Shown here one piece after another: positions 3,697 through 63,371 of a stretch of DNA of 64,000 nucleotides. Origin of the DNA: Pyrinomonadaceae bacterium (GTDB taxonomy: Bacteria; Acidobacteriota; Blastocatellia; Pyrinomonadales; Pyrinomonadaceae); assembly GCA_963817025.1 (NCBI GenBank), contig CAWFML010000001.1, forward strand, positions 285,332 to 349,331, written 5' to 3'. The notes beneath the pieces are model-generated. The model was not told the DNA's origin and searched no databases. It saw only the letters and a program-made list of their open reading frames with translations. Both the position numbers and the translations under genes were made by a program. Numbering within the stretch: the first letter of the stretch is position 1; each line of letters starts with the position of its first letter.

Positions 3697-5163
3697 TTAG
3701 AGCTTCTTGATATATTCGACCAGCGCGTCCTTTTCTTCCGGCGTCAGCTTTGTGCCGTAGAGATGGCCCGTGTTGCTGTTTCCCTGCAACGCCGTATCGA
3801 ACTTGAAGAACCTGTGGCCGTTTTCTTCCGCGACGTTTGTCACAAAGCCGAGCTTGATCTGATCGAAAACGTCATAGCCGCGATAAAATTCTTTGGGACG
3901 GTTCTCAGGAGGCTCAAGCAAATCTCTCAGGGTCGGCACAGAGCCGTTATGCAGAAACGGAGCGCGCAGCCACACGCCGTCAAGCGGCATGTTGGCGTAG
4001 CCGTTCGTCTTCCTAAAATGTGAGAAACGCCACTCGTAACCCGCATACAGCGTGTTCTGATTCTCAAGCAATTCATACGTGTATGAATCAAGACGATGGC
4101 GGTCTGTTTGAATCTCTTCAATCGGCGTCACCTTGCCGACCTGCGCGCCGTCAAAGGCATGACAGCCCGCGCAGTTCTGTTGCCAGACCGTTTGTCCCTT
4201 TGCCGCCAACGCTTCATTGACCGGATACGGGTAAGGCGGCGCGGGCAAATCCCAGAGCCATGTTTCGATACGTTTCAAGCGATCAAGGTCAATCGTCGTC
4301 GGCGTCACGCCCGCGCCTAAGGAGGCGGATTTGTTGCGCTCGACCACGGAAGTGTTGTTGCCGTCCCAGTGAAGCTGCATCCCTTCGCGCGGTCTCTGAT
4401 GCCAGATGACCGGCAGGTCAACCGTGCCGATGGTGTGGTCTTTCTCCATCGGAAAATTGAATTGCAGAGCTTTGTATGGATTAAAAGTGTCCACGCGGCC
4501 CGGCCCCCAATCGGGGCGCACATTCATAAAAGAAGTGCGCCGCGCCTGTTCCGTCAAAACCTCGCGCGTGCGCCAGACGGCCTCTCGATACATCAGCTTT
4601 TCAATCGGGTTGAGGCTGGTGCGCTGCGCTATGGCCTGCATCACATTGTCCACTGTGAAGCGCGGGTCTTGCGCCGCTCCATAAAGAAAACGCGCGTAGC
4701 CCTGTAAATCGAAATTGTTGGCGGGCATGCCGAGGATGATGCGCGGCTTGCTCTGCGCGGTGTCGCGCACGGTTCCCGTATGACAGAGCGCGCAGTTCAT
4801 CCCGACGCGGTCAACCAGCACGCGCCGGATTGAAAAGCCTATCGGCGTATCCTTGCCCGGCTCTTCCAACAAGCCGAAACCGGCATAGCCTTTTCCGGCG
4901 ACAGGCAACTTGTCTGGAAACATGTCCGGCATCACTTTCCAAATCCAGTAGGGAATGCCGTTGGCCGGTTCGCTGCCGATAGAGCCGTACTTGAAATGCT
5001 CGTTGATGTCAGGGTAGTCAACCGCCGCGCTCCCGACCGGAATAAGCTTCCAGAAGAGATAGGTGACGATCATCGCCAGCACGAAGAGGACGATGAGCGT
5101 CCATTTGCCGAATCTCTTGCGTTCGGCAAGCTCGACGGGTGTTAGTGGGTCTTGATCTTTCAT
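3697..5163 (-). CDS. membrane-anchored di-heme c-type cytochrome, CCP/MauG-like, paralog of 1780-3210
   Basis: 488 aa with an N-terminal TM helix, CALCH and CAGCH motifs, and RAPFLHNGSVPTLRDLL. A GGAGG ribosome-binding site precedes the ATG. The N-terminal region HFKYGSIGSEPANGIPYWIWKVMPDMFPDKLP aligns with NFKYGSLGNENTDGIPYWIWLVLPRMFPEKLP in the paralog. Confidence 0.65.
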   Translation of the reverse strand: MKDQDPLTPVELAERKRFGKWTLIVLFVLAMIVTYLFWKLIPVGSAAVDYPDINEHFKYGSIGSEPANGIPYWIWKVMPDMFPDKLPVAGKGYAGFGLLEEPGKDTPIGFSIRRVLVDRVGMNCALCHTGTVRDTAQSKPRIILGMPANNFDLQGYARFLYGAAQDPRFTVDNVMQAIAQRTSLNPIEKLMYREAVWRTREVLTEQARRTSFMNVRPDWGPGRVDTFNPYKALQFNFPMEKDHTIGTVDLPVIWHQRPREGMQLHWDGNNTSVVERNKSASLGAGVTPTTIDLDRLKRIETWLWDLPAPPYPYPVNEALAAKGQTVWQQNCAGCHAFDGAQVGKVTPIEEIQTDRHRLDSYTYELLENQNTLYAGYEWRFSHFRKTNGYANMPLDGVWLRAPFLHNGSVPTLRDLLEPPENRPKEFYRGYDVFDQIKLGFVTNVAEENGHRFFKFDTALQGNSNTGHLYGTKLTPEEKDALVEYIKKL

Positions 5164-5204: not shown

Positions 5205-5339
5205 GTCAGAACCGCGAGCGAGAGCAAGGATGAAGGATGAAGGCGGAAGGATGAAAGGCAGGCCGTTCAAACATGAACCACTCAACTTTAAATAGCATGC
5301 TCTTCATCCTTCATCCTTGCTCTCGCTCGCGGTTCTGAC
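5205..5339. repeat. palindromic intergenic repeat, GGATGAAGG family (copy 1)
   Basis: Inverted arms gtcagaaccgcgagcgagagcaaggatgaaggatgaagg and ccttcatccttcatccttgctctcgctcgcggttctgac. A second copy lies at 58629-58743. Confidence 0.8.
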
Positions 5340-6727: not shown

Positions 6728-6832
6728 ACCAGATGTTCTTTGCGGCGCTTTGCGTCTGTTCTTCTTTGCGGTTAAGAGTTTTTTTTAACGCAAAGGGCGC
6801 GAAGTATTTTCGCAAAGAGCGCAAAGATTATT
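6728..6832. repeat. palindromic repeat, GCGCAAAG family (degenerate copy)
   Basis: ctttgcggcgctttgcgtctg...cgcaaagggcgcgaag...cgcaaagagcgcaaag, imperfect inverted CTTTGCG/CGCAAAG units. Confidence 0.6.
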
Positions 6833-6878
6833 TTCTGTCGTGACTGCTTCCATCTCCATTATGTGAGTCGCCTGCGCT

Positions 6879-19482: not shown

Positions 19483-21253
<1,771 letters not shown>

Positions 21254-21350
21254 AAGGCAAAAGTAAAAAGGTAAAGGGCAAAAGTGAAGATATAAGGACT
21301 TATCAAGGCTGTTCTTCACTTTTGCCTTTTACCTTTTGCCTTCTTACTTA
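21254..21350. repeat. palindromic repeat, GGCAAAAG/GTAAAAG family (copy a), abutting the groEL stop
   Basis: ggcaaaagtaaaaaggtaaagggcaaaagtgaaga ...loop... tcttcacttttgccttttaccttttgcc. Confidence 0.85.
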
Positions 21351-23905: not shown

Positions 23906-23950
23906 AAAAGGGTTTCAGTGAGACTTTCATTGAAGCCCTTTTCCTTTTCC
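23906..23950 (+). terminator. putative rho-independent terminator after the clpA-like gene
   Basis: Stem aaaagggtttca / tgaagccctttt (11 of 12 bp) followed by ccttttcc. Confidence 0.5.
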
Positions 23951-23984
23951 GGTAAGCTTTGAATTTGAAAGAGAACGTCTCATG

Positions 23985-24086
23985 CAAAGGCGCAAAAGGA
24001 AGGTAAAAGTGAAGAGTGATTGAATGCTTTCCTGCCTTTTACCTTTTACCTTTTTACTTTTACCTTCCTTTTGCGCCTTTGCGAGA
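23985..24086. repeat. palindromic repeat, GTAAAAG family (copy b) with GCGCAAAG-type outer arms
   Basis: caaaggcgcaaaaggaaggtaaaagtgaagag ... cctgccttttaccttttacctttttacttttaccttccttttgcgcctttgcg. Confidence 0.8.
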
Positions 24087-24120
24087 AAATTCTTCGCCAC
24101 TTAGCATCACTCTTAAACTT

Positions 24121-24963
24121 ATGAACTACAAAATCATTTTTCACACGAAATGGCCGCTCGCCATGCTTTCCCTGCTGCTTCTTCTCTGCCTGACGACTTT
24201 GAACATTCAGGCGCAGAGCGAAAAGGCCGCGCCTGCCGCGAAGCCCGCGCCCGCCGGCGAAGAGAAGGCCGAGCAGATTTTGCAGCAAGCCGCAGCCGCG
24301 CTTGGCGGCAACAGCTATCTGAGTGTCAGCACCGTCGTCGGGCGCGGCATGTACACGCTTTACAAGGAAGGCCAGCCGGAATTGCCTCTCACCTTTACAG
24401 ACCACCTCGTCTACCCGGACAAAGAGCGGACGGAGTTTCGCAGCGAGGGAATTAAAACCATTCAGGTCAACACGGGCGACACGGGCTGGATTTTTGACGG
24501 CGGGGCCAGAAGCTTGAAAGACCTGAAGCCCGATCAGATCAACAACTTCAAACTGGCAATGCGTATCAATATAGATAACCTGCTGCGCGGCGCGTGGCGC
24601 AAAGAGGGCGCGAAGATCAGCTATGCCGGAAGGCGCGAGGCGGGCCTTGCCAAACGCAATGAGACTGTACGCGTCTCCTATCCTGACGGCTTCACAGTCG
24701 AGTTCGAGTTTGGCGCGCAGGATCATCTCCCGGCCAAAATCATCTATCTCAAAAAGCATCCTGAGAACGATGACGAGTTTATCAAGGAAGAAGACCGCAT
24801 GGCGCAGTATCTCAACCTCAACGGCATCCTTGCTCCCTTCGTCATAGACCACTACAGCGCGGGAGTGCAGACCAGCCGCACCAACTATCAATCCATAGAG
24901 TTCAACGCGCCCGTCCCCGACAGCCTCTTTACGCGTCCGGCGAATGCGAAGGCCGTCAAGTAA
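24121..24963 (+). CDS. secreted hypothetical protein (signal peptide)
   Basis: MNYKIIFHTKWPLAMLSLLLLLCLTTLNIQAQS signal peptide. The ORF-track start at 24016 lies inside the repeat element and is rejected. Confidence 0.6.
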   Translation: MNYKIIFHTKWPLAMLSLLLLLCLTTLNIQAQSEKAAPAAKPAPAGEEKAEQILQQAAAALGGNSYLSVSTVVGRGMYTLYKEGQPELPLTFTDHLVYPDKERTEFRSEGIKTIQVNTGDTGWIFDGGARSLKDLKPDQINNFKLAMRINIDNLLRGAWRKEGAKISYAGRREAGLAKRNETVRVSYPDGFTVEFEFGAQDHLPAKIIYLKKHPENDDEFIKEEDRMAQYLNLNGILAPFVIDHYSAGVQTSRTNYQSIEFNAPVPDSLFTRPANAKAVK

Positions 24964-25053
24964 AAAAAGGAAAAAGGTAAAAGGTAAAAGGTAAAAGTGA
25001 AGATGAAAGCAATGCCGTTCTGACTTTTACCTTTTACCTTTTTCCTTTTTCCT
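24964..25053. repeat. palindromic repeat, GTAAAAG family (copy c)
   Basis: aaaaaaggaaaaaggtaaaaggtaaaaggtaaaagtgaagatgaaagcaatgccgttctgacttttaccttttacctttttcctttttcc. It abuts the stop of the 24121-24963 gene and is followed by a half-site of the GCCACAGAGGAC family. Confidence 0.8.
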
Positions 25054-25073
25054 TTCTCTTGTGTCCTCTGTGG

Positions 25074-25622
25074 CTAACTCCCACGCTTTGCTGCGCGCAC
25101 AAGCTTTGTGAACGCCTGCATCTCTGCTTCCGGAAATTCACGCCGCCAGTTTTTATCGAACTCGTCAACTTCTATGTCGCGGTGCAATTCGCGCAGAGCT
25201 GTCCAGAATGGGAGGCAGAGGTCGAGCGGGGTCGCCGTGTGTGAAAAGACAACCTCGCGTTTGCTCTTGAGCCTGCGGTGATCCGGGAAACGCACGACCG
25301 TGAGTTCCGCCCCCGCCTGATTTTGCAGCCACTCGAAATCATATTCTTCAGGCTCTCTGTTCCATTTGACGGTCAAGTTTTTTTCGCCGCCGAGAAGCGC
25401 GGAGAGAGCCTGGATTAAATCGCGCAGCGAATCATAGGGCGCGTGTGAGACGGCTGTCACAAAGCTTTCCTGACCGGCCTTGAGACCGATGGACATCCAG
25501 CCGCTCTGCGGGCTGTTAAAGCTGACTTTTAGTTTCTGGTTCATGTAATAATGTTGAGACAAAACTTGACAAGGCTGTTCAATCTTAGTTATCTGGACTT
25601 GCTCTTCGGTTTTAGAATACAA
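25074..25622 (-). CDS. hypothetical protein, divergent from thyA
   Basis: 182-aa ORF with no recognisable motif. The true start may be the internal MNQKLKV. Confidence 0.45.
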
Positions 25623-28650: not shown

Positions 28651-28760
28651 ACTTTGATTTTAATTAGCCACAGAGGACTCAGAGAGATTTCAAATCAATA
28701 ATCTCAAATTTGAAATCTTTAAAATCTCTGTGTCCTCTGTGGCTAATCTTCTCTGTCTGA
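28651..28760. repeat. palindromic repeat, GCCACAGAGGAC family
   Basis: attagccacagaggactcagagagatttcaaatcaataatctcaaatttgaaatctttaaaatctctgtgtcctctgtggctaat. Related copies at 25060-25080 (half) and 61921-61990. Confidence 0.75.
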
Positions 28761-28779
28761 GATTTATTTGAGAGCGATG

Positions 28780-30162: not shown

Positions 30163-30490
30163 CTGCCTCCGTGCGGGTTATCCGAAGAGACTTTCAAAAT
30201 ATAACTGCTGCAAAGTTCGTCCCAGAGATAAAATAGGAAGAATCCGTTTCATCAATAAATAACACTCAAGTCGCACAGATTTCAAACTCAGAGTGAGTTT
30301 TGTTGTTTTTATAGCCATTAGCGATTGGATATAGCCGCTTGAGCAGGGCATCTTGTCAGAACCGCCTGCGGCAAGCGTGCGGGTTCTTAGCATTGAAGAC
30401 CCGCACGCTTGCCGCAGGCGGTTCTGACCTGTGTCTACACTCAATCGCAAATTGCTATAGTAGTTGCCCGCAGGAATTTGGTTAGATTAA

Positions 30491-30745
30491 CGTGAGTTCG
30501 ACGGAAGAACGGTGCGGTGTTAGTTAGCCCCGGAGGGGCGGCATATATTAGCCCACGGCTTCAGCCGTGGGGACAGCACCCACATCAATGGTCTAAGCCC
30601 CGGAGGGGCGGCATAATCTATACCGCCCCTCCGGGGCTTAGACCTTGTAGGGCGTCTTGTCCCAGCACTGACGTGCTGGGCTAATATATGTCGCCCCTCC
30701 GGGGCTGTCATGGAGCAATCCTCTTCCGCTTATATCGAACTCACG
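30491..30745. mobile_element. MITE-like non-autonomous element, copy A (255 bp, 11-bp terminal inverted repeats, 9-bp target-site duplication TTAGATTAA)
   Basis: Ends are cgtgagttcga...tcgaactcacg. It is flanked on both sides by ttagattaa. The interior carries four copies of the palindromic 14-mer GCCCCGGAGGGGCG and its reverse complement. Copy B at 51512-51789 is the reverse complement. Confidence 0.8.
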
Positions 30746-39527: not shown

Positions 39528-39625
39528 GGCATCGCTTTGCGAGAAAAACTTTGCGTGCTTTGCGTTAAAGAGTCACTTGACCGCAAAGAGCGCGAAAGAG
39601 TAAGACGCAAAGAGACGCAAAGGAA
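39528..39625. repeat. palindromic repeat, GCGCAAAG family (degenerate copy)
   Basis: ctttgcgtgctttgcgttaaagag...cgcaaagagcgcgaaagagtaagacgcaaagagacgcaaagg. Confidence 0.6.
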
Positions 39626-39682
39626 ATGCTATTCCCGGTGAACGGTTTCTAATCTTGATTCGCATTATCAGAGGAAAAGCAA

Positions 39683-40483: not shown

Positions 40484-40554
40484 GCGGAAGCAAGTTTTTT
40501 CAATAGCGGGTCAGTTTGAAATTCCGGTGAATATTCATCAGGACGAAAGAGATT

Positions 40555-40680
40555 CGCGCAAAGGCGCAAAAGCAAGGCAAAAGTAAAAAGGTAAAAGGCA
40601 AAAGTGAAGACGAGTTGACTGCCTTTCTTACTTTTACCTTTTACCTTTTGCCTTTTTACTTCTGTCGCGCCTTTGCGCGA
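40555..40680. repeat. composite palindromic repeat: GCGCAAAG outer arms enclosing a GGCAAAAG/GTAAAAG core
   Basis: gcgcaaaggcgcaaaagcaaggcaaaagtaaaaaggtaaaaggcaaaagtgaagacgagttgactgcctttcttacttttaccttttaccttttgcctttttacttctgtcgcgcctttgcgcg. Confidence 0.85.
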
Positions 40681-40761
40681 ACATGTTTTTTCTTCGCTGC
40701 TATTGAAACTGAAGAGCTACCGTTTTTTTAGGTTACGTTCTCATTTCGGAAAGATTCTCCC

Positions 40762-42657
40762 ATGAAAAACTCAAACAGCCTTGCGTCTCCCTCTCAGGCA
40801 AACATCTTTTCGCGCATGGCGTTGCTCCTGAGCCTGCCGCTCATGCTCCTGCTTATCACGCACGCGCATGTCAACGCGCAGACGCAAACGCCCGTCGTCG
40901 TGCAGGAAGAGGCGACCACCACGACGAATGCCGTCGAGCGTGCGACAAAGGAAGCAGTCAAGGCCAAGTCCGTTGTCCGTGGCCGCGCCGTCTATGATGA
41001 TACGGATCGGCCCGTGCGCCGCGCTCGCGTCATGCTGCTGGATATGAACCAGCGCGGGCCGGAGCGCACGGGGATGACCAACGGCTCCGGCGAGTTTCAA
41101 ATCAAGGAAGTTCCGGCAGGCAACTACTTTGTGATGGTGGATATGACGGGAGTGATTACGCCTATCAGCTTCGTTGATTTTGAGGATGCCAGCGGCGAGA
41201 AATTCAATCTTGAAGAGGTGAAAAAGCATTTCACGGAAATCGCCGTGGACGGCACGAATGACCAGACCATCAAGGTGCGTGCGCGAAAGGGCGGAGCCAT
41301 CAGCGGCAAAGTGACATACGCGGATGGAGATGCGGCCATCAACGTGCGTGTCAACATCATGCGCAAGAAAGACGGAAAGCTGGCGCGCTTTATCACCAAT
41401 CTTAACCCGTCTGCGTTATTCGGGATTCAAACGGACGACCGTGGGATGTATCGCATCGCAGGGCTGCCGCCCGGCGAATACAACATCAGCGTAGCAGAGA
41501 CTGTGGATCACTCGGAGGGGCGCAGCGGTCGTGAAGAATACTATATGGGGATGAACATGTTCGGCGGCAACTCTCTGCTGGTCACATATTATCAGGGCGC
41601 GACCGATGAGAAAGAGGCGACTTCCCTACAGGTTGACGCCGGACAGGAATATAACGAGATCAACATCTCGCTGGTCGAGCGCGTGCTGCATAAACTCTCG
41701 GGAACAGTCGTCGCGCGGCGTGACAACAAGCCTCTTCCCAATACTCGCATCAGCATCAAAAGCAAAACCGACACCCTTCCAGACTTTGGTTTTATGTCTG
41801 TCGGGCCGGGCGCATCCACAGACGAGCAGGGCCGTTTCACGCTCAACGAGATACCCGACGGCGTTTACACCCTGACGGTCGAATCAACTTATTCAGGCCC
41901 GGAGGTAAGAACTGAAGTGGATGAAGAAGGGTCGCCGTCAACGGCACCCAACGAGTCGAGGCGCAAGCTGATACGCAAGCAGCAGGACGTAACCGTCAAC
42001 GGCAACGATGTGGCGGATTTGACGATCACTCTCATAGAGGGCGCAATCCTCAACGGCACTGTGATGGTTGACGGGGGCAAACCGCTCCCGCCGCTGACTT
42101 ATGTGACGATGGCGGATGCGAGCGGCGCGGTGGTCAGCGATGTCCCGGTGGAGGTGCAGCAAGACGGCAGTTTCACGATAGACGGTTTGCCTGCGGGAGC
42201 CGTTTACCCGAACGTCTCTGTCAGAGCCACGAGTGAAAACTATTACGTGAAATCAATGACGGCAGGCGGCGCGGACTTGATGCGTGACGCGCTCGCCGTC
42301 GGCGAGGGCGCGAACATCAATGGCGTGAAGATTGTCATCTCGCCTGATGCGGCGACGCTCACGGGCCGCGTGCTCGCACCGGACGCTACGCCTGTCAGCG
42401 GCGCGCGCTTTGTGCTTATCCCGGCAGACCTAACTCGTTGGCGCGCACGCATCTCTTATCTCTTCGGAGATTCTGCGGGCAACGGCAGCTACACCGTCAG
42501 CGGCGCGCCCGGAGAGTATCTCATCGTCTTCATGCGACCGGCAGACCAGCCGAACGCCATCAACGAGGCGTGGATTAGAGAACGCGCCGTAAACGCACAG
42601 CGCGTGACGCTGCTGCCGAAACAGAGCAAGAGCATGAACCTGACCATGCCTCAATAG
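40762..42657 (+). CDS. secreted protein with multiple carboxypeptidase-regulatory-like (CarboxypepD_reg / transthyretin-like) beta-sandwich domains
   Basis: Signal peptide. Repeated modules of the type VRGRAVYDDTDRPVRRARVMLLD...GEFQIKEVPAGNYFV, LSGTVVARRDNKPLPNTRISI...GRFTLNEIPDGVYTL and LTGRVLAPDATPVSGARFVLIP...GSYTVSGAPGEYLI. Confidence 0.6.
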   Translation: MKNSNSLASPSQANIFSRMALLLSLPLMLLLITHAHVNAQTQTPVVVQEEATTTTNAVERATKEAVKAKSVVRGRAVYDDTDRPVRRARVMLLDMNQRGPERTGMTNGSGEFQIKEVPAGNYFVMVDMTGVITPISFVDFEDASGEKFNLEEVKKHFTEIAVDGTNDQTIKVRARKGGAISGKVTYADGDAAINVRVNIMRKKDGKLARFITNLNPSALFGIQTDDRGMYRIAGLPPGEYNISVAETVDHSEGRSGREEYYMGMNMFGGNSLLVTYYQGATDEKEATSLQVDAGQEYNEINISLVERVLHKLSGTVVARRDNKPLPNTRISIKSKTDTLPDFGFMSVGPGASTDEQGRFTLNEIPDGVYTLTVESTYSGPEVRTEVDEEGSPSTAPNESRRKLIRKQQDVTVNGNDVADLTITLIEGAILNGTVMVDGGKPLPPLTYVTMADASGAVVSDVPVEVQQDGSFTIDGLPAGAVYPNVSVRATSENYYVKSMTAGGADLMRDALAVGEGANINGVKIVISPDAATLTGRVLAPDATPVSGARFVLIPADLTRWRARISYLFGDSAGNGSYTVSGAPGEYLIVFMRPADQPNAINEAWIRERAVNAQRVTLLPKQSKSMNLTMPQ

Positions 42658-42750
42658 AAGGCAAAAGTAAAAAGGTAAAAGGCAAAAGTCAGAGAAGCAT
42701 TCAACTGCTCTTCACTTTTGCCTTTTACCTTTTTACTTTTGCCTTCTTCC
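42658..42750. repeat. palindromic repeat, GGCAAAAG/GTAAAAG family (copy e), abutting a stop codon
   Basis: aggcaaaagtaaaaaggtaaaaggcaaaagtcagagaagcattcaactgctcttcacttttgccttttacctttttacttttgcc. Nearly identical to the copy at 57412-57505. Confidence 0.85.
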
Positions 42751-45619: not shown

Positions 45620-45751
45620 CGCTCCGAATATCGAACCTTTCCTTTGTTTGCCACTCCTCTGATGCTCTACGCGCTTTCAATTTTTAGGAGTGGGTCAAGG
45701 TGAAGTTGATGAGTCGTTAATCATGAACTGAGTGCGGAAGAAAGCAAGATT

Positions 45752-45850
45752 CTCCCGCAAAGACGCAAAGGCGCAGAGGAAGACCGCAAAGGTGTTGAGT
45801 GCCACTCGCTCTTGGCGTGCTTTTCTTTAAGCCTTTGCGCCTTTGCGGGA
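45752..45850. repeat. palindromic repeat, GCGCAAAG family (copy d)
   Basis: cgcaaagacgcaaaggcgcagaggaagaccgcaaaggtgttgagtgccactcgctcttggcgtgcttttctttaagcctttgcgcctttgcg. Confidence 0.85.
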
Positions 45851-45893
45851 AACTGTCTTTTGGTCTCCGCGCTTGTCATCTGAAACTGACTCA

Positions 45894-46310
45894 CTACCCA
45901 ATTTTTGATTTACGCTTGCGCCGTTCTCCTGCATCCGTGAAGGCAAAGGCGAATCCGAAGACGAAGGTCGCAGGGAAGAAGATAAACATCGCTTTCTCCC
46001 AGAGCCGGAATTTCTCGAAGTCTTCCTCTGTGCGCGTCGTGCCGCCCTTGCCTGCGTAGCCGTTTCCGGTTTGCCTGATAGGCGCATCAGGAAAGTTGTA
46101 AGCCCCGTAGATCAAGGTGGCAGATGCCAGCACAGACGCAGTGATAGTGAGCAGGAGCAGGAGGCGCGTGAGTGGCCCACGATGCCGCGCCCTTTTCCGC
46201 TCAAGCCCGGCCTGTCTAGCCATCTGTGTATATAACGCCTGTGCCTCGCTCAGAGCATCGCGCCCTTGCTCCGGCGCGGGCTGTGAACTCCTGCGGTCAG
46301 CTTCTTTCAT
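45894..46310 (-). CDS. hypothetical membrane protein
   Basis: ORF with two predicted TM helices (LLLLTITASVLASATLIYGAY; IFFPATFVFGFAFAF). The start is uncertain; the internal MKEADRR at 46310 is preferred over the ORF-track 46418. Confidence 0.35.
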   Translation of the reverse strand: MKEADRRSSQPAPEQGRDALSEAQALYTQMARQAGLERKRARHRGPLTRLLLLLTITASVLASATLIYGAYNFPDAPIRQTGNGYAGKGGTTRTEEDFEKFRLWEKAMFIFFPATFVFGFAFAFTDAGERRKRKSKIG

Positions 46311-51484: not shown

Positions 51485-51511
51485 CCACAAAGGCACAAAG
51501 GCACTAAGAAA

Positions 51512-51789
51512 CGTGAGTTCGATATAAGCAGAAGAGGATGCTGCATGACAGCCCCGGAGGGGCGACATAGCTTAGCCCGGCACGTCAGTGCCGGGACAAG
51601 ACGCCCTACAAGGACGAAGCCCCGGAGGGGCAACATATTATGCCGCCCCTCCGGGGCTTCGACTTTTGATGTGGCTGCTGTGTCCACGGCTGAAGCCGTG
51701 GGCTAATCTATGTCGCCCCTCCGGGGCTATCTAACATCTCGCCCCTCCGGGGCTAACTGACACCTCACCGTTCTTACGTCGTACTCACG
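51512..51789. mobile_element. MITE-like element, copy B (278 bp, inverted relative to copy A), nested inside a GCACAAAG-family palindrome
   Basis: Terminal inverted repeats cgtgagttcga...tcgtactcacg. Flanking duplication ctaagaaa / ttaagaaa. The interior has GCCCCGGAGGGGCG units. The host palindrome arms ttaaccacaaaggcacaaaggcactaagaaa (51481-51511) and ttcttagtgtctttgtgcctttgtggttaa (51809-51838) are split by the insertion. Confidence 0.8.
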
Positions 51790-51898
51790 TTAAGAAAATG
51801 ATTCCTCTTTCTTAGTGTCTTTGTGCCTTTGTGGTTAATCTGTCTTTATTCTTATCCGCGCCTATCCGCGTTCATCCGTGGCTGATTCGTCTCTTTTC

Positions 51899-54763: not shown

Positions 54764-55106
54764 AATTCTATTTTCCTATATTGGCGGCGAGGTTTTATCT
54801 CTTTCACATTTTCCGAAATTGAATTCATAAATACCCGTTAATGATTACAAAGACCGTATTATATTAGGAATATTTCAAGCTGATGCAGCATTCCGGGCAT
54901 TGACGAGATTGGTTCTAACAGTTGGGGCGACTCTGGAAATCAGTTCCGGCTGGCATCATTTGGCGAGAAGCGCGGATTTGTAATCTTCAAGAAGCTTTCT
55001 TAGGCCAGAAACATAGCCACCTTACACGTGATTGCGGTAAATCTTTCAATCTGAGGGAAATTCAGGTAGTGGGTCAGTTTCAGATGACAAGCCCGGAAAC
55101 CAAAAG

Positions 55107-55209
55107 CATGTTCGCGCAAGGGCGCTGGTGGCGCAAAGAAAGCACGCCAAGAGCGAGTGTCATTCAACACCTTTGCGGTCTTTCTTTGCGCCACCAGCGC
55201 CTTTGCGCG
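55107..55209. repeat. palindromic repeat, GCGCAAAG family (copy f, inverted relative to copy d)
   Basis: gcgctggtggcgcaaagaaagcacgccaagagcgagtgtcattcaacacctttgcggtctttctttgcgccaccagcgcctttgcg. Confidence 0.85.
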
Positions 55210-55379
55210 AATATGCTTTTCTTCGCTATTTGTGAAGCAGACTCACTACTCCCTGAAAAAGGGACTAGCCGGGATGAAGCGCTTCGTTATATAATGCTTT
55301 TGCCTGCGAGATTTTCTCTCTCGCTTAGCAATTGCCCATCTAAATATTTTTCCTCCTCAAGCTTGCAATCTCGAACATC

Positions 55380-57411: not shown

Positions 57412-57505
57412 GAAGGCAAAAGTAAAAAGGTAAAAGGCAAAAGTCAGAAAGGCATTCAAGCCCTCTTCACTTTTGCCTTTTACCTTTTTACTTTTGCCTT
57501 TTATT
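57412..57505. repeat. palindromic repeat, GGCAAAAG/GTAAAAG family (copy f); overlaps the 3' end of the SET-domain gene
   Basis: aaggcaaaagtaaaaaggtaaaaggcaaaagtcagaaaggcattcaagccctcttcacttttgccttttacctttttacttttgcc. The right arm encodes the last four codons and the stop (K-R-Q-K-TAA) of the minus-strand SET-domain gene. Confidence 0.85.
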
Positions 57506-58628: not shown

Positions 58629-58743
58629 CAGGAGCAAGGATGAAGGATGAAGGATGAAGGATGAAAAGCATGCTATTCAACCTTGAGTTGCTCATCTTCA
58701 ATAGCGCTCTGTTCATCCTTCCGCCTTCATCCTTGCTTTTCCA
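58629..58743. repeat. palindromic repeat, GGATGAAGG family (copy 2); overlaps the rph stop codon
   Basis: ggagcaaggatgaaggatgaaggatgaaggatgaaaagcatgc ... ctgttcatccttccgccttcatccttgcttttcc. On the minus strand its right arm reads ...GAA AAG CAA GGA TGA, giving the rph C-terminus E-K-Q-G-stop. Confidence 0.8.
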
Positions 58744-62073: not shown

Positions 62074-62466
62074 TGGTGGAGGCGCCGAGAATTGAACTCG
62101 GATCCAAAAGTCGCCGCCGGTGCCGTCTACATGCTTAGTCGTTTCTCTTTTCGCAAAGACCCGAAGGCCGTTGCGGTTTTCGCCCTTTGCAGAGTCTGTG
62201 AAACGACAAGACCTCCGCAAGAGCTAGTCCGACTTTATCTCACGCACTGCCACGGACCGAAGCAGCGCGCCAGCTCAACTGAGTGACATCTCCTTCCGCG
62301 CGTATGAGCAACTTGCGGCGAGACGCTCGGTGCTTAATTAGGCAGCGAGAGCCAATTCTTGATTATTGGCAATTGTTTTTTCTCCACGCTTTTTAACGAG
62401 CTGCATGAAGTAGCCCGGCATGCATTCACTCGACGTACAAGACTCCTGTCGAAGCCTGTCGCCCCC
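62074..62466 (-). ncRNA. ssrA: tmRNA (SsrA), ~393 nt, one-piece, CCA encoded
   Basis: The minus strand reads 5'-GGGGGCGACAGGCUUCGAC...GCAUGCCGGG...GUUAAAAAGCG...[tag ORF GCC AAU AAU CAA GAA UUG GCU CUC GCU GCC UAA]...GACUAAGCAUGUAGACGGCACCGG...GGAUCCGAGUUCAAUUCUCGGCGCCUCCACCA-3'. The acceptor stem GGGGGCG/CGCCUCC has a G3-U70 wobble (Ala identity). It has a T-arm-like GAGUUCAAUUCUC and the discriminator A plus CCA. The tag peptide ANNQELALAA is encoded at 62338-62370. Confidence 0.92.
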
Positions 62467-62878: not shown

Positions 62879-63045
62879 TTTATGCCCTCTGTCGAGGAAG
62901 GTCTGAAATCTCAAAGCAGAGGTGAGCTTGGAGTTTAGGAGCAGAATCGGGTTGAGGTCAAGAACTATTGATGTCTGGTGGTGGGTCAACTTGAAGTTGA
63001 TGATTCGTCAATCCTGAATTGAGTACGACAAGAGAGCAGAATTCT

Positions 63046-63143
63046 CACGCAAAGGCGCTGGTGGCGCAAAGCAAGACCGCAAAGCATTGAATGCCACTTG
63101 CTCTTTGCGTGCTTTTCTTTGCGCCACCAGCGCCTTTGCGTGA
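63046..63143. repeat. palindromic repeat, GCGCAAAG family (copy g)
   Basis: cacgcaaaggcgctggtggcgcaaagcaagaccgcaaagcattgaatgccacttgctctttgcgtgcttttctttgcgccaccagcgcctttgcgtg. Confidence 0.85.
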
Positions 63144-63371
63144 ACATTTCGTTTTCTTTGCTATCTTTGAAACTGAACCACTACCTGATGACCGCTTTTC
63201 TTCGGCCAGAGACAGGCAATCTCGTTTCTCTCATTCTTCACACTTGCGTTATAATTCTCAACGCGCCAGCGACACGAAAAAAGTCTCCAAAAGTCGCGCG
63301 TCCATAAAACTCAGGCTCGGGCAACGTGCATCTGAACGCTTGAGCTTACTTTTCAAAGAGGAATTGCTTTC

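Follow-up and report, generated by a model that had tools for sequence, protein, structure and literature searches.

How did a single intergenic hairpin come to hold two families of short tandem repeats, one nested inside the other? The question is raised by positions 40555-40680 of a 64,000-nt stretch of Pyrinomonadaceae bacterium DNA (GenBank assembly GCA_963817025.1, contig CAWFML010000001.1, positions 285,332 to 349,331 of the forward strand), hereafter called the window. An initial annotation proposed that this hairpin and others in the window share a modular architecture of purine-rich octamers in inverted arms, produced by a common generating process or kept by a common ligand. The hairpin lies at the centre of a 220-bp miniature inverted-repeat transposable element (MITE), and we hold with moderate confidence, the mechanism proposed below included, that this MITE nests a gene-less copy of a heptamer-repeat element whose full form carries a gene of the PF05635 family. 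Both a MITE and an element of the rRNA intervening sequence (IVS) type are known kinds; the cross-link between them is unexpected.

Two layers of the composite hairpin

The region at 40555-40680 is a single long hairpin of the 60-bp class that can fold on either strand. The predicted RNA folding energies are -62.4 kcal/mol (+ strand) and -70.5 kcal/mol (- strand), compared with about -32 ± 3.6 kcal/mol for dinucleotide shuffles (z of -8.7 and -10.4; 0 of 200 shuffles match), and the sequence is as the initial annotation described it. Outer arms of the GCGCAAAG type surround inner arms of GGCAAAA/GTAAAAA/GGTAAAA units. The inner 89 bp make up a complete member of the heptamer family without an open reading frame (ORF), with two inverted arms of ~31 nt (~4.4 units) and a short core; the core at 40606-40630 is asymmetric, and the mini-element thus has an orientation. 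The inner 5' arm at 40573-40605 is a 'master' 32-mer that is present in 35 of 128 copies in other genomes.

A second hairpin at 23984-24086, already recognized as mixing both families, is a homologous copy with the same two-layer build. The two composites align end to end with 77% identity and agree in core orientation and junction; the fold z values of the second are -11.6 and -9.2, and its left arm is ~20 nt shorter, with ~3 units fewer. The window contains three instances of the junction between the layers, GCGCAAAAG[C/G]AAGG[C/T]AAAAG, where 0.00 would be expected. It was absent from 121 comparison loci, and a metagenome scan for it returned 41 stretches, nearly all of them chance matches in coding DNA and none a MITE composite. 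The full-length homology, identical junction and common core orientation indicate a single origin of the composite, which was afterwards copied whole.

The outer layer belongs to the MITE, and the GCGCAAAG octamer arms are the internal palindrome of this family. Its members are 170-220 bp long and non-coding, with five aligned copies in 64 kb and further copies in another species. As in other MITEs, the element has terminal inverted repeats (TIRs), a fixed 8-bp target site duplication (TSD), no coding capacity and multiple copies; it differs in that its interior is an unusually long tandem-octamer palindrome able to host a second element. The TIRs read GGTAGTGGGTCAGTTTCA...TGAAACTGACTCACTACC; both L025 and the window copies have the right end TGAAACTGAC(T/C)CACTACC, and TIR matches were found in the window, L025 and L060. 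The copy in L025, from a different species, is bounded on both sides by the perfect 8-bp TSD ATAAGCTG. The copy that holds the composite lies between the stop of a DUF4878 gene (40483) and the start of a CarboxypepD_reg gene (40762; both Pfam). The second composite has a right TIR-like end at 24111-24129, and the ATG (24121) of the next gene stands inside this TIR; the gene predicted to start there encodes 280 aa and lies downstream of clpC. Pfam scans of ~40 window ORFs revealed no transposase or other mobile-element gene. Paired TIRs at the spacing of insertion sequences (IS) were not found in ~1 Mb of comparison loci, and the wider collection was not scanned with the TIR.

The full element carries a PF05635 gene

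Heptamer arms like those of the inner layer enclose a single kind of gene in other genomes. Clustering of the proteins encoded beside the arm 20-mer (described below) disclosed a ~120-aa ORF between both arms in four loci, namely, L026 (Pyrinomonadaceae), L068 and L049 (Leptolyngbya, Stenomitos) and L110 (Limisphaerales); in L053 (Chitinophaga), GCTAAAA/GTTAAAA arms surround a fifth such ORF. The predicted protein matches two families, PF05635 at E=7e-22 ('23S rRNA intervening sequence protein') and TIGR02436 at E=2e-28 ('four helix bundle protein'); among solved structures, 2RLD, whose deposited model has five chains, is nearest to it. Its homologues are 70-87% identical across Pyrinomonadaceae and 73-78% in Nostoc, with 70-78% identity between Acidobacteriota and Nostoc. 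Acidobacteriota, Cyanobacteriota and Verrucomicrobiota share four-helix-bundle proteins that are 60-78% identical and have the same A-rich heptamer arms (L026 vs L163, L068 and L110), which suggests that the element has passed as a whole between phyla by horizontal transfer.

Inverted tandem heptamers flank every PF05635 gene examined, across at least five phyla. Besides the loci above, these include L163-L169, the acidobacterial L183 and L184 with GATGAA-type arms, and 10 of 10 plasmid-borne genes, each with its own heptamer unit (Table 1). The full element occurs in Acidobacteriota, Cyanobacteriota, Verrucomicrobiota, Bacteroidota, Chloroflexota and Spirochaetota. PF05635 was the only cargo ORF found between inverted arrays, and in three 50-kb control regions the strongest period-7 arrays were those 3-80 nt from a PF05635 gene. 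The only other recurrent neighbour of the arms was a 10-member cluster of 138-735-aa proteins, which was set aside since such unequal lengths probably reflect a common domain family. Arm and protein sequences diverge together: distances between the proteins and between their heptamers are correlated (Mantel r=0.41, p=4e-4), and the units differ at 1.3 of 7 positions in protein pairs at least 60% identical and at 3.3 of 7 in pairs below 45%. On this sequence evidence, the heptamer arms and the PF05635 protein evolve as one unit.

The arm families that flank PF05635 genes include GGCAAAA/GGTAAAA and GGATGAA of the window and CGTAAAT of its relatives, and arms of the GATGAA type, comparable with the hairpin at 58633-58737, flank PF05635 genes in L177, L183 and L184. 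Because such arms flank the gene in the full form, diverge together with it and match the build of the Coxiella burnetii IVS, the heptamer hairpins of the window, immediately 3' of stop codons, are best read as miniature gene-less relatives of the PF05635 element. Lacking the four-helix-bundle ORF, they are classed as ORF-less relatives and not as full members. The core of the hairpin at 24964-25058 keeps a segment, AAAAGTGAAGATGAAAG, identical to the arm and ORF start (ATGAAAG) of the full L026 element; as a trace of a full element, this identity is suggestive only.

Variant layouts and insertion sites of the full element were also observed. L053 (3630-4110) and L176 (Treponema) have the order purine arm, pyrimidine arm, ORF, pyrimidine arm in place of arm, ORF, arm, that is, a whole hairpin upstream of the gene and a third arm downstream. 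In two acidobacterial genomes (L166:629-3351 and L168:551-3354), PF05635 elements with unlike arms sit at the identical site inside a Ski2/HelY-like helicase gene, which is thereby split into a DEAD-domain ORF and a DSHCT-domain ORF. Elements in defence loci (L173, L177 and L178) lie between DISARM drmD and an MmeI-type enzyme, between DUF1156 and a Swt1-HEPN gene, and between a helicase and an N6-methylase.

Table 1. Coordinates and arm sequences of the composite hairpins, MITE copies and heptamer hairpins of the window, with the arms of plasmid-borne PF05635 genes
Feature	Position or replicon	Strand	Details
Outer 5' arm CGCGCAAAGGCGCAAAAG	40555-40572	+	GCGCAAAG octamer family, MITE-internal palindrome
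Inner 5' arm CAAGGCAAAAGTAAAAAGGTAAAAGGCAAAAGT	40573-40605	+	4.4 tandem heptamers GGCAAAA GTAAAAA GGTAAAA GGCAAAA GT (Tandem Repeats Finder)
Core/loop GAAGACGAGTTGACTGCCTTTCTTA	40606-40630	+	25 nt; variant of family core GAAGAGnnnTTGAATGCCTTTCTGA
Inner 3' arm CTTTTACCTTTTACCTTTTGCCTTTTTACTT	40631-40661	+	CTTTTAC-type heptamers, 3.7 copies
CTGT spacer	between 40661 and 40666		joins inner and outer 3' arms
Outer 3' arm CGCGCCTTTGCGCG	40666-40679	+	
MITE, complete copy	40502-40721	+	220 bp; holds the composite hairpin; aligned with other copies; no internal ORF
Left TSD GTTTTTTC	40494-40501		agrees with GTTTTTTT at 40722-40729 in 7/8 positions
Left TIR AATAGCGGGTCAGTTTGA	40502-40519	+	degenerate; family consensus GGTAGTGGGTCAGTTTCA
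Right TIR TGAAACTGAAGAGCTACC	40704-40721	+	
Right TSD GTTTTTTT	40722-40729		
Second composite hairpin	23984-24086	+	homologous to 40555-40680 over whole length
Further composite	5205-5339		GTCAGAACCGC outer arms enclosing GGATGAA heptamer arms
MITE copy	45687-45898	+	canonical non-composite GCGCAAAG centre; TSD CAATTTTT both sides (45678-85, 45899-906)
MITE copy	55065-55250	+	divergent intergenic region; no clear TSD
MITE copy	62977-63185	+	TSD TGATGTCT/TGATGACC, 6/8 positions
ORF-less GGCAAAA-family hairpin	21251-21349		begins at groEL stop codon
ORF-less GGTAAAA hairpin	24964-25058		between convergent genes; core keeps AAAAGTGAAGATGAAAG
ORF-less GGCAAAA hairpin	42656-42747		34-bp perfect arms; overlaps stop codon at 42655-57
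ORF-less GGCAAAA hairpin	57413-57500		between convergent genes; stop codon of SET-domain gene inside arm
GGATGAA-family heptamer hairpin	58633-58737		3' end of rph (RNase PH)
Plasmid PF05635 arms	Nostoc and Anabaena (L170, L171)		GTAAAAA/GGCAAAA, between cas2 and cas1
Plasmid PF05635 arms	Euhalothece		CCAGTGA
Plasmid PF05635 arms	Gloeocapsa		TTTTAGA
Plasmid PF05635 arms	Bernardetia		AGTGATT
Plasmid PF05635 arms	Chondrinema		AACTGTn
Plasmid PF05635 arms	Treponema		GTGGAAA/CGCTCTC
Plasmid PF05635 arms	Chlorohelix		GGATGAA
Plasmid PF05635 arms	Planktothrix		CGTAAAT; CCCCAAT array too
Plasmid PF05635 arms	Nostoc punctiforme		GCAATTC

Periodicity and repeat families

The architecture of inverted arrays of short tandem units, as initially proposed, is found throughout the window and its relatives, and the dominant period is seven. 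Tandem Repeats Finder reported 19 period-7 arrays in the window, compared with a mean of 1.2 in dinucleotide shuffles, together with 8 period-8 arrays (1.2 in shuffles) and 7 period-9 arrays (1.65), so the suggested check of periodicity against shuffles gave a significant result. When compared with shuffled arms, 12 of 19 hairpin arms show significant periodicity (p<=0.006); periodicity was not individually significant for the arms of 23984 (the short arm), 43338, 55102 and 63030, which are of the GCGCAAAG type, and of 30355. The true period is 7 for GGCAAAA|GTAAAAA|GGTAAAA, GGATGAA and CAAAGCA, 8 for GCGCAAAG(G) and 9 for GGAGAGTTT; AGTGACG and GCGAAAA arrays are likewise present. About 20 long intergenic hairpins occur per 64 kb, with 3.7-5.9 heptamers per period-7 arm and stems of 31-34 bp. 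The proposed octamer units thus apply to GCGCAAAG(G) only, most families having period 7 and GGAGAGTTT period 9. Tandem arrays of 7-9 nt are real, and the general form G-N-purine4-G is followed only loosely in the window and fails in related genomes.

Other repeats and RNA genes of the window were noted. Outer arms of the family GTCAGAACCGC...GCGGTTCTGAC surround two interiors that are unrelated to each other, with GGATGAA heptamers forming the hairpin at 5205-5339 and a GC-rich stem at 30355-30428; a relative in another Acidobacteria genome (L121, ~4200-4290) adjoins a conserved ...ATTGCTATAGT...ACGTGAGTTCGA stretch. A minority of hairpins are pyrimidine-first (CTTTGTG...CACAAAG; CTTTGCG...CGCAAAG) and stand just upstream of genes (19485-19610, 6750-6860 and 39540-39640); the one between grpE and groEL is kept in L119. 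A further family is built on CCACAGAGGACACAGAGA/TCTCTGTGTCCTCTGTGG (28656-28773 and 25059-25077), and its partial copy abuts the 24964 hairpin. At gathering thresholds, Rfam returned only one tmRNA (62074-62466, - strand, tag peptide ANNQELALAA) and four Acido-Lenti-1 matches in the window; no window hairpin was matched, and there is no rRNA gene in the window. The Acido-Lenti-1 matches are inverted pairs within larger nested palindromes at 30526-30706 and 51547-51754, the second of which is enclosed by (CACAAAGG)x3...(CTTTGTGC)x3 arms at 51486-51508 and 51811-51833. This arrangement suggests that the Acido-Lenti-1 motif is not an independent small RNA gene and belongs instead to a repeated palindromic element, which is probably mobile.

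Two other ideas were rejected. A loop motif TTGAATGCC common to all families was suggested by inspection. TTGAATG is present in only 10 of the 237 hairpin centres (against 0.86 expected), chiefly in those of GGCAAAA hairpins, and the loops vary widely between species. CRISPR arrays, integron attC sites and protein-coding repeats do not fit repeats that are inverted and not regularly spaced direct copies, flanking genes that are housekeeping, and arms that are rich in stop codons.

Distribution and turnover among relatives

The genes of the window are ordinary chromosomal ones, including an hsp20-clpB-hsp20-grpE-groEL-clpC cluster, and its ClpC is 88-94% identical to Pyrinomonadaceae proteins. 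The arm 20-mer AAAAGGTAAAAGGCAAAAGT was found in more than 115 stretches of species-representative genomes, mostly of Pyrinomonadaceae or Blastocatellia, and elsewhere in Nostoc, Leptolyngbya, Trichodesmium, Bacteroidota, a Limisphaerales genome and others; it is nearly always the 5' arm of a hairpin. In 800 kb of these loci, there are 454 period-7 and 77 period-8 arrays and 133 inverted array pairs, made of dozens of unrelated units (e.g., AGTGATG, CGTAAAT, CAGTTTT, AAGGTTC, AATGGTC and GTGACAG); CAGTGGT arrays also occur in related genomes. The families co-occur in Pyrinomonadaceae, and their phylogenetic distributions are thus not unrelated. The architecture is thus general, and, given the diversity of its units, neither the G-N-purine4-G rule nor a single ligand for the CAAAG/CTTTG face is; the latter proposal finds no support.

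At orthologous sites, hairpin position is often kept while the family changes, as seen in five syntenic loci of other Pyrinomonadaceae. The 3' side of groEL holds a GGCAAAA hairpin in the window, L117 and L119, a CGTAAAT hairpin in L118 and, in L120, a composite with GGCAAAA outer arms around a CGTAAAT hairpin. The clpB-hsp20 spacer is 14-20 nt long in three genomes and carries a GGGATGA hairpin (95+ nt) in two; L118 has one AAGGATGAAG unit where L119 and L120 have this hairpin.

The arms are also rich in stop codons. Read from outside inward, they contain many more stop codons than their reverse complements do (p=1e-19 overall; p=1e-4 when A-rich families are excluded; window and L001-L115), and with a period of 7 or 8 nt, a single stop-containing unit closes all three frames within three units. 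This richness and the purine-first orientation given below may reflect the ribosome-binding region or the start of the cargo ORF as well as tolerance of insertions at gene ends.

Relation to known elements

The rRNA IVS is the closest known counterpart of the heptamer element. In Coxiella burnetii, the IVS of 23S rRNA is a 428-nt selfish element with a 28-bp stem formed from terminal inverted repeats; the heptamer GACAGAT, repeated in tandem three or four times depending on the strain, stands beside the S23p ORF, which lies in the loop, and RNase III cuts within the stem to excise the element (PMC4990558). The IVSs of Coxiella burnetii and Leptospira (PMC4990558) resemble the elements described here in their TIR stem of ~28-32 bp, in variable-number tandem heptamers beside the ORF and in the ~120-aa four-helix-bundle ORF in the loop of the full element; the IVS is regarded as selfish, its mode of mobility unexplained. 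The window copies share the stem of at least 28 bp and the variable tandem heptamers with it and lack the loop ORF and the 23S rRNA location. They differ further in being intergenic between protein genes, after stop codons, in operons and once in a MITE, rather than in helix 25/45; in occurring as ~20 hairpins per 64 kb with many heptamer families; and in that their cleavage by RNase III is proposed by analogy. PF05635 ORFs were also detected in rRNA insertions of the candidate phyla radiation, where some insertions at the same site lack an ORF, as shown for LAGLIDADG-encoding insertions (bioRxiv 2024.02.27.582315). Apart from the Coxiella IVS (PMC4990558), the literature searched holds no report that ties PF05635 or 'four helix bundle protein' genes to heptamer repeats or to the short tandemly repeated repetitive (STRR) sequences of cyanobacteria. 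The genes found here stand alone between heptamer arrays, with no reverse transcriptase and no template or variable repeats adjoining, and in this they differ from the gene of Avd in diversity-generating retroelements (DGRs).

Avd is a pentameric, basic, nucleic-acid-binding partner of reverse transcriptase. The two proteins share a homologous four-helix-bundle fold (PMC10053308), and PF05635 is described as 'functionally uncharacterized' and homologous to Avd (PMC10053308; bioRxiv 2024.02.27.582315). Heptamers are the commonest long simple repeats in bacteria and are ascribed to polymerase slippage (Mrazek 2007, cited through PMC4679880). The window arm 20-mer also forms hairpin arms in Nostoc genomes, and PF05635 genes on Nostoc, Anabaena and Planktothrix plasmids are flanked by heptamers, two further points of likeness to the STRRs. 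The STRRs are reportedly tandem heptanucleotides in intergenic DNA, said to have been defined in heterocystous cyanobacteria by Mazel in 1990, and their function is not known to have been explained since. They resemble the present arrays in being intergenic tandem heptamers, often hairpin-forming and of many families; the differences lie in other unit sequences and in the host, which here is acidobacterial and not a heterocystous cyanobacterium.

Alternative explanations

The heptamer hairpins are unlikely to be, in essence, bidirectional terminators or mRNA 3'-end stabilisers selected by the host, with reiterated A/U tracts around a GC-richer core and an incidental family identity. Their position invites such an explanation. 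Among 237 hairpins from the window and comparison loci, a median of 6 nt separates the hairpin from the stop codon upstream, which is often within the first unit; they occupy 39 of 100 convergent and 132 of 429 tandem intergenic regions and only 22 of 99 divergent ones, and the purine-rich arm comes first in 114 of the 133 inverted array pairs. Some cores form a GC stem and then a T run, such as the clpC hairpin of L120, and core1 and MITE-core matches appear in a terminator consensus scan, which showed no clear enrichment (34 sites vs 24.5 ± 4.7) and is blind to long-loop hairpins. The conserved position after groEL, with turnover of its sequence, would also be expected of terminators. However, an intrinsic terminator of canonical form, in which a T run follows GGGTTTCAGTGAGACTTTCATTGAAGCCC, lies at 23910-23949, 3' of clpC and upstream of the composite, and is kept in four other Pyrinomonadaceae genomes. 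The composite is thus not needed as a terminator there, and ordinary terminators coexist with heptamer hairpins. Hairpins are also found in divergent regions, within operons and inside a MITE; the 3' arms are U-rich in the GGCAAAA family, whereas many other families lack a U-rich 3' arm (25 vs 22 in non-A-rich families); and there is almost no strand asymmetry of the fold (sense-antisense difference of -1.2 kcal/mol, p=0.04; p=0.13 for stop-proximal hairpins). Nor do terminators explain the exact 32-mer shared across species and the linkage to PF05635. Termination is compatible with these elements as a secondary, exapted role.

A purely local origin, in which a 7-8-nt seed expands by slipped-strand replication and quasipalindromes are corrected on a hairpin template, with no copying between loci, appears very improbable. 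It would account for unit numbers that vary between copies and arms, for the dominance of period 7 whatever the sequence, for stop codons in the first unit and for the single AAGGATGAAG unit of L118. The common generating process of the initial annotation is accepted to this extent, as slippage, and not as a purely in situ event. Arm sizes are peaked (median 4.4 units or 31 nt, interquartile range 3.6-4.7 units) and not open-ended. In 35 of 128 GGCAAAA-family arms from many species, one exact 32-mer has three different units in fixed order, which indicates copying from a master sequence rather than independent slippage, and two loci of one genome carry CGTAAAT arms with identical internal variant order and different loops. 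Target duplications of the MITE copies and matching arm families beside homologous genes in different phyla are equally foreign to local expansion. Still less probable is a system of the repetitive extragenic palindromic (REP) or REP doublet forming hairpins (REPIN) type, mobilized by a REP-associated tyrosine transposase (RAYT, of the HUH type), or derivatives of IS200/IS605 like palindrome-associated transposable elements. Conserved arms with a variable centre, intergenic location, several families per genome and long persistence across species recall REPIN populations (PMC3116915), and pure hairpins here lack a TSD as well. Abundant palindromes at 3' ends, a master sequence and a proposed dedicated protein partner are further likenesses to REP sequences, bacterial interspersed mosaic elements (BIMEs) and the REPIN-RAYT pair. 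The arms are instead non-palindromic tandem heptamers or octamers with no GTAG/CGTC tag, and they accompany a four-helix-bundle gene in place of an HUH transposase; the initial annotation had likewise not recognized them as classical REP/BIME. No transposase-like gene is among the window ORFs scanned, and only PF05635 recurs beside hairpins, in a survey that included no systematic search for RAYT and no scan of whole genomes. Paired double-stranded sites for a global regulator or nucleoid protein (like integration host factor, IHF, or HU) are about as improbable. In Geobacter metallireducens, inverted pairs of three to five tandem 7-9-nt units, variably spaced, fall into three classes, with some sites assigned to two of them (PMC2700814); several classes per genome, two-class sites that amount to composites and arms of defined length are all matched here. 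The Geobacter sites have other units, are read as IHF/HU sites without evidence and have no reported link to a cargo gene (PMC2700814), whereas the present hairpins are mainly at gene 3' ends and not at promoters, comprise dozens of unrelated units and are physically linked to one specific small gene.

Several observations weigh against the nested MITE and PF05635 element that we favour. Neither a target duplication nor defined ends were found for pure heptamer hairpins, the MITE copy at 55065-55250 shows no clear TSD, and the left end of the 23984 copy is degenerate. The single formation and transposition of the composite rests on two copies, its junction being unseen in other genomes or metagenomes. 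A PF05635 gene was found by neither tblastn nor hmmsearch in the 64-kb window, so a trans-acting protein in this organism is an assumption; hmmsearch, run on the window and on all loci to detect divergent PF05635 ORFs, added no further copies. Arms of the GCGCAAAG, CAAAGCA and GGAGAGTTT families were never seen flanking a PF05635 gene, and ORF-less hairpins vastly outnumber ORF-bearing copies. The identity between 24964 and L026 extends only ~6 nt past the common junction, and descent may have run in either direction, from full elements to hairpins or by homing of the gene into pre-existing hairpins. Finally, an RNA-level function of the stems is argued by analogy, and sense and antisense strands fold almost equally well.

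Proposed mechanism and implications

The nested-element origin of 40555-40680 suggests how such hairpins may form and persist. Tandem heptamers would grow and shrink by replication slippage. The likeness of the purine-rich arms of both families (GCAAAG vs GCAAAAG) could have allowed template switching or recombination to build the composite; alternatively, it may have arisen by insertion into the central hairpin of the MITE. Once transcribed, stems of 30-45 bp would be double-stranded RNA, which RNase III may cut as in the rRNA IVS, and such cuts would define or separate transcript ends. The heptamers may be iterated binding sites of the pentameric four-helix-bundle protein, on whose supply in trans the ORF-less copies would depend. 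Protein binding to the heptamers would explain the defined length of the arms, their unit order and their family-specific sequences. A protein partner, as the initial annotation supposed, is plausible; that annotation was right about the shared architecture and its distinction from REP elements, and missed both the MITE, with its TIRs and 8-bp TSD, and the PF05635 cargo gene.

A more general proposal is tentative, and we doubt it more than we credit it: the PF05635/TIGR02436 protein (S23p, Avd-like) may recognize tandem heptamers by their sequence and maintain or spread palindromic elements with stems cut by RNase III. One subunit of the pentamer would then contact each 7-nt unit of an arm of ~4-5 units. 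The class would take in 23S rRNA IVSs, cyanobacterial and other plasmid arrays (perhaps with the classical STRRs), the paired repeats of Geobacter and the hairpins of Pyrinomonadaceae, and ORF-less hairpins would be non-autonomous satellites of the gene-bearing elements, as REPINs are to RAYTs.

The composite hairpins are nested mobile elements rather than a new repeat grammar. Heptamer arrays as the arms of one element type, with PF05635 as its sole cargo, tie together three puzzles that had seemed unconnected, among them why Nostoc-like bacteria teem with tandem heptamers (the STRRs of 1990) and what the abundant intergenic hairpins of soil Acidobacteria are. They also yield a testable hypothesis of binding between cognate protein and heptamer and of processing by RNase III, as well as grounds on which 'four helix bundle protein' genes, of which there are thousands, could be annotated together with their satellite hairpins. 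In the sampled genomes, the elements sit in operons, between cas2 and cas1, in defence loci and in a helicase gene, where they may shape transcript processing.

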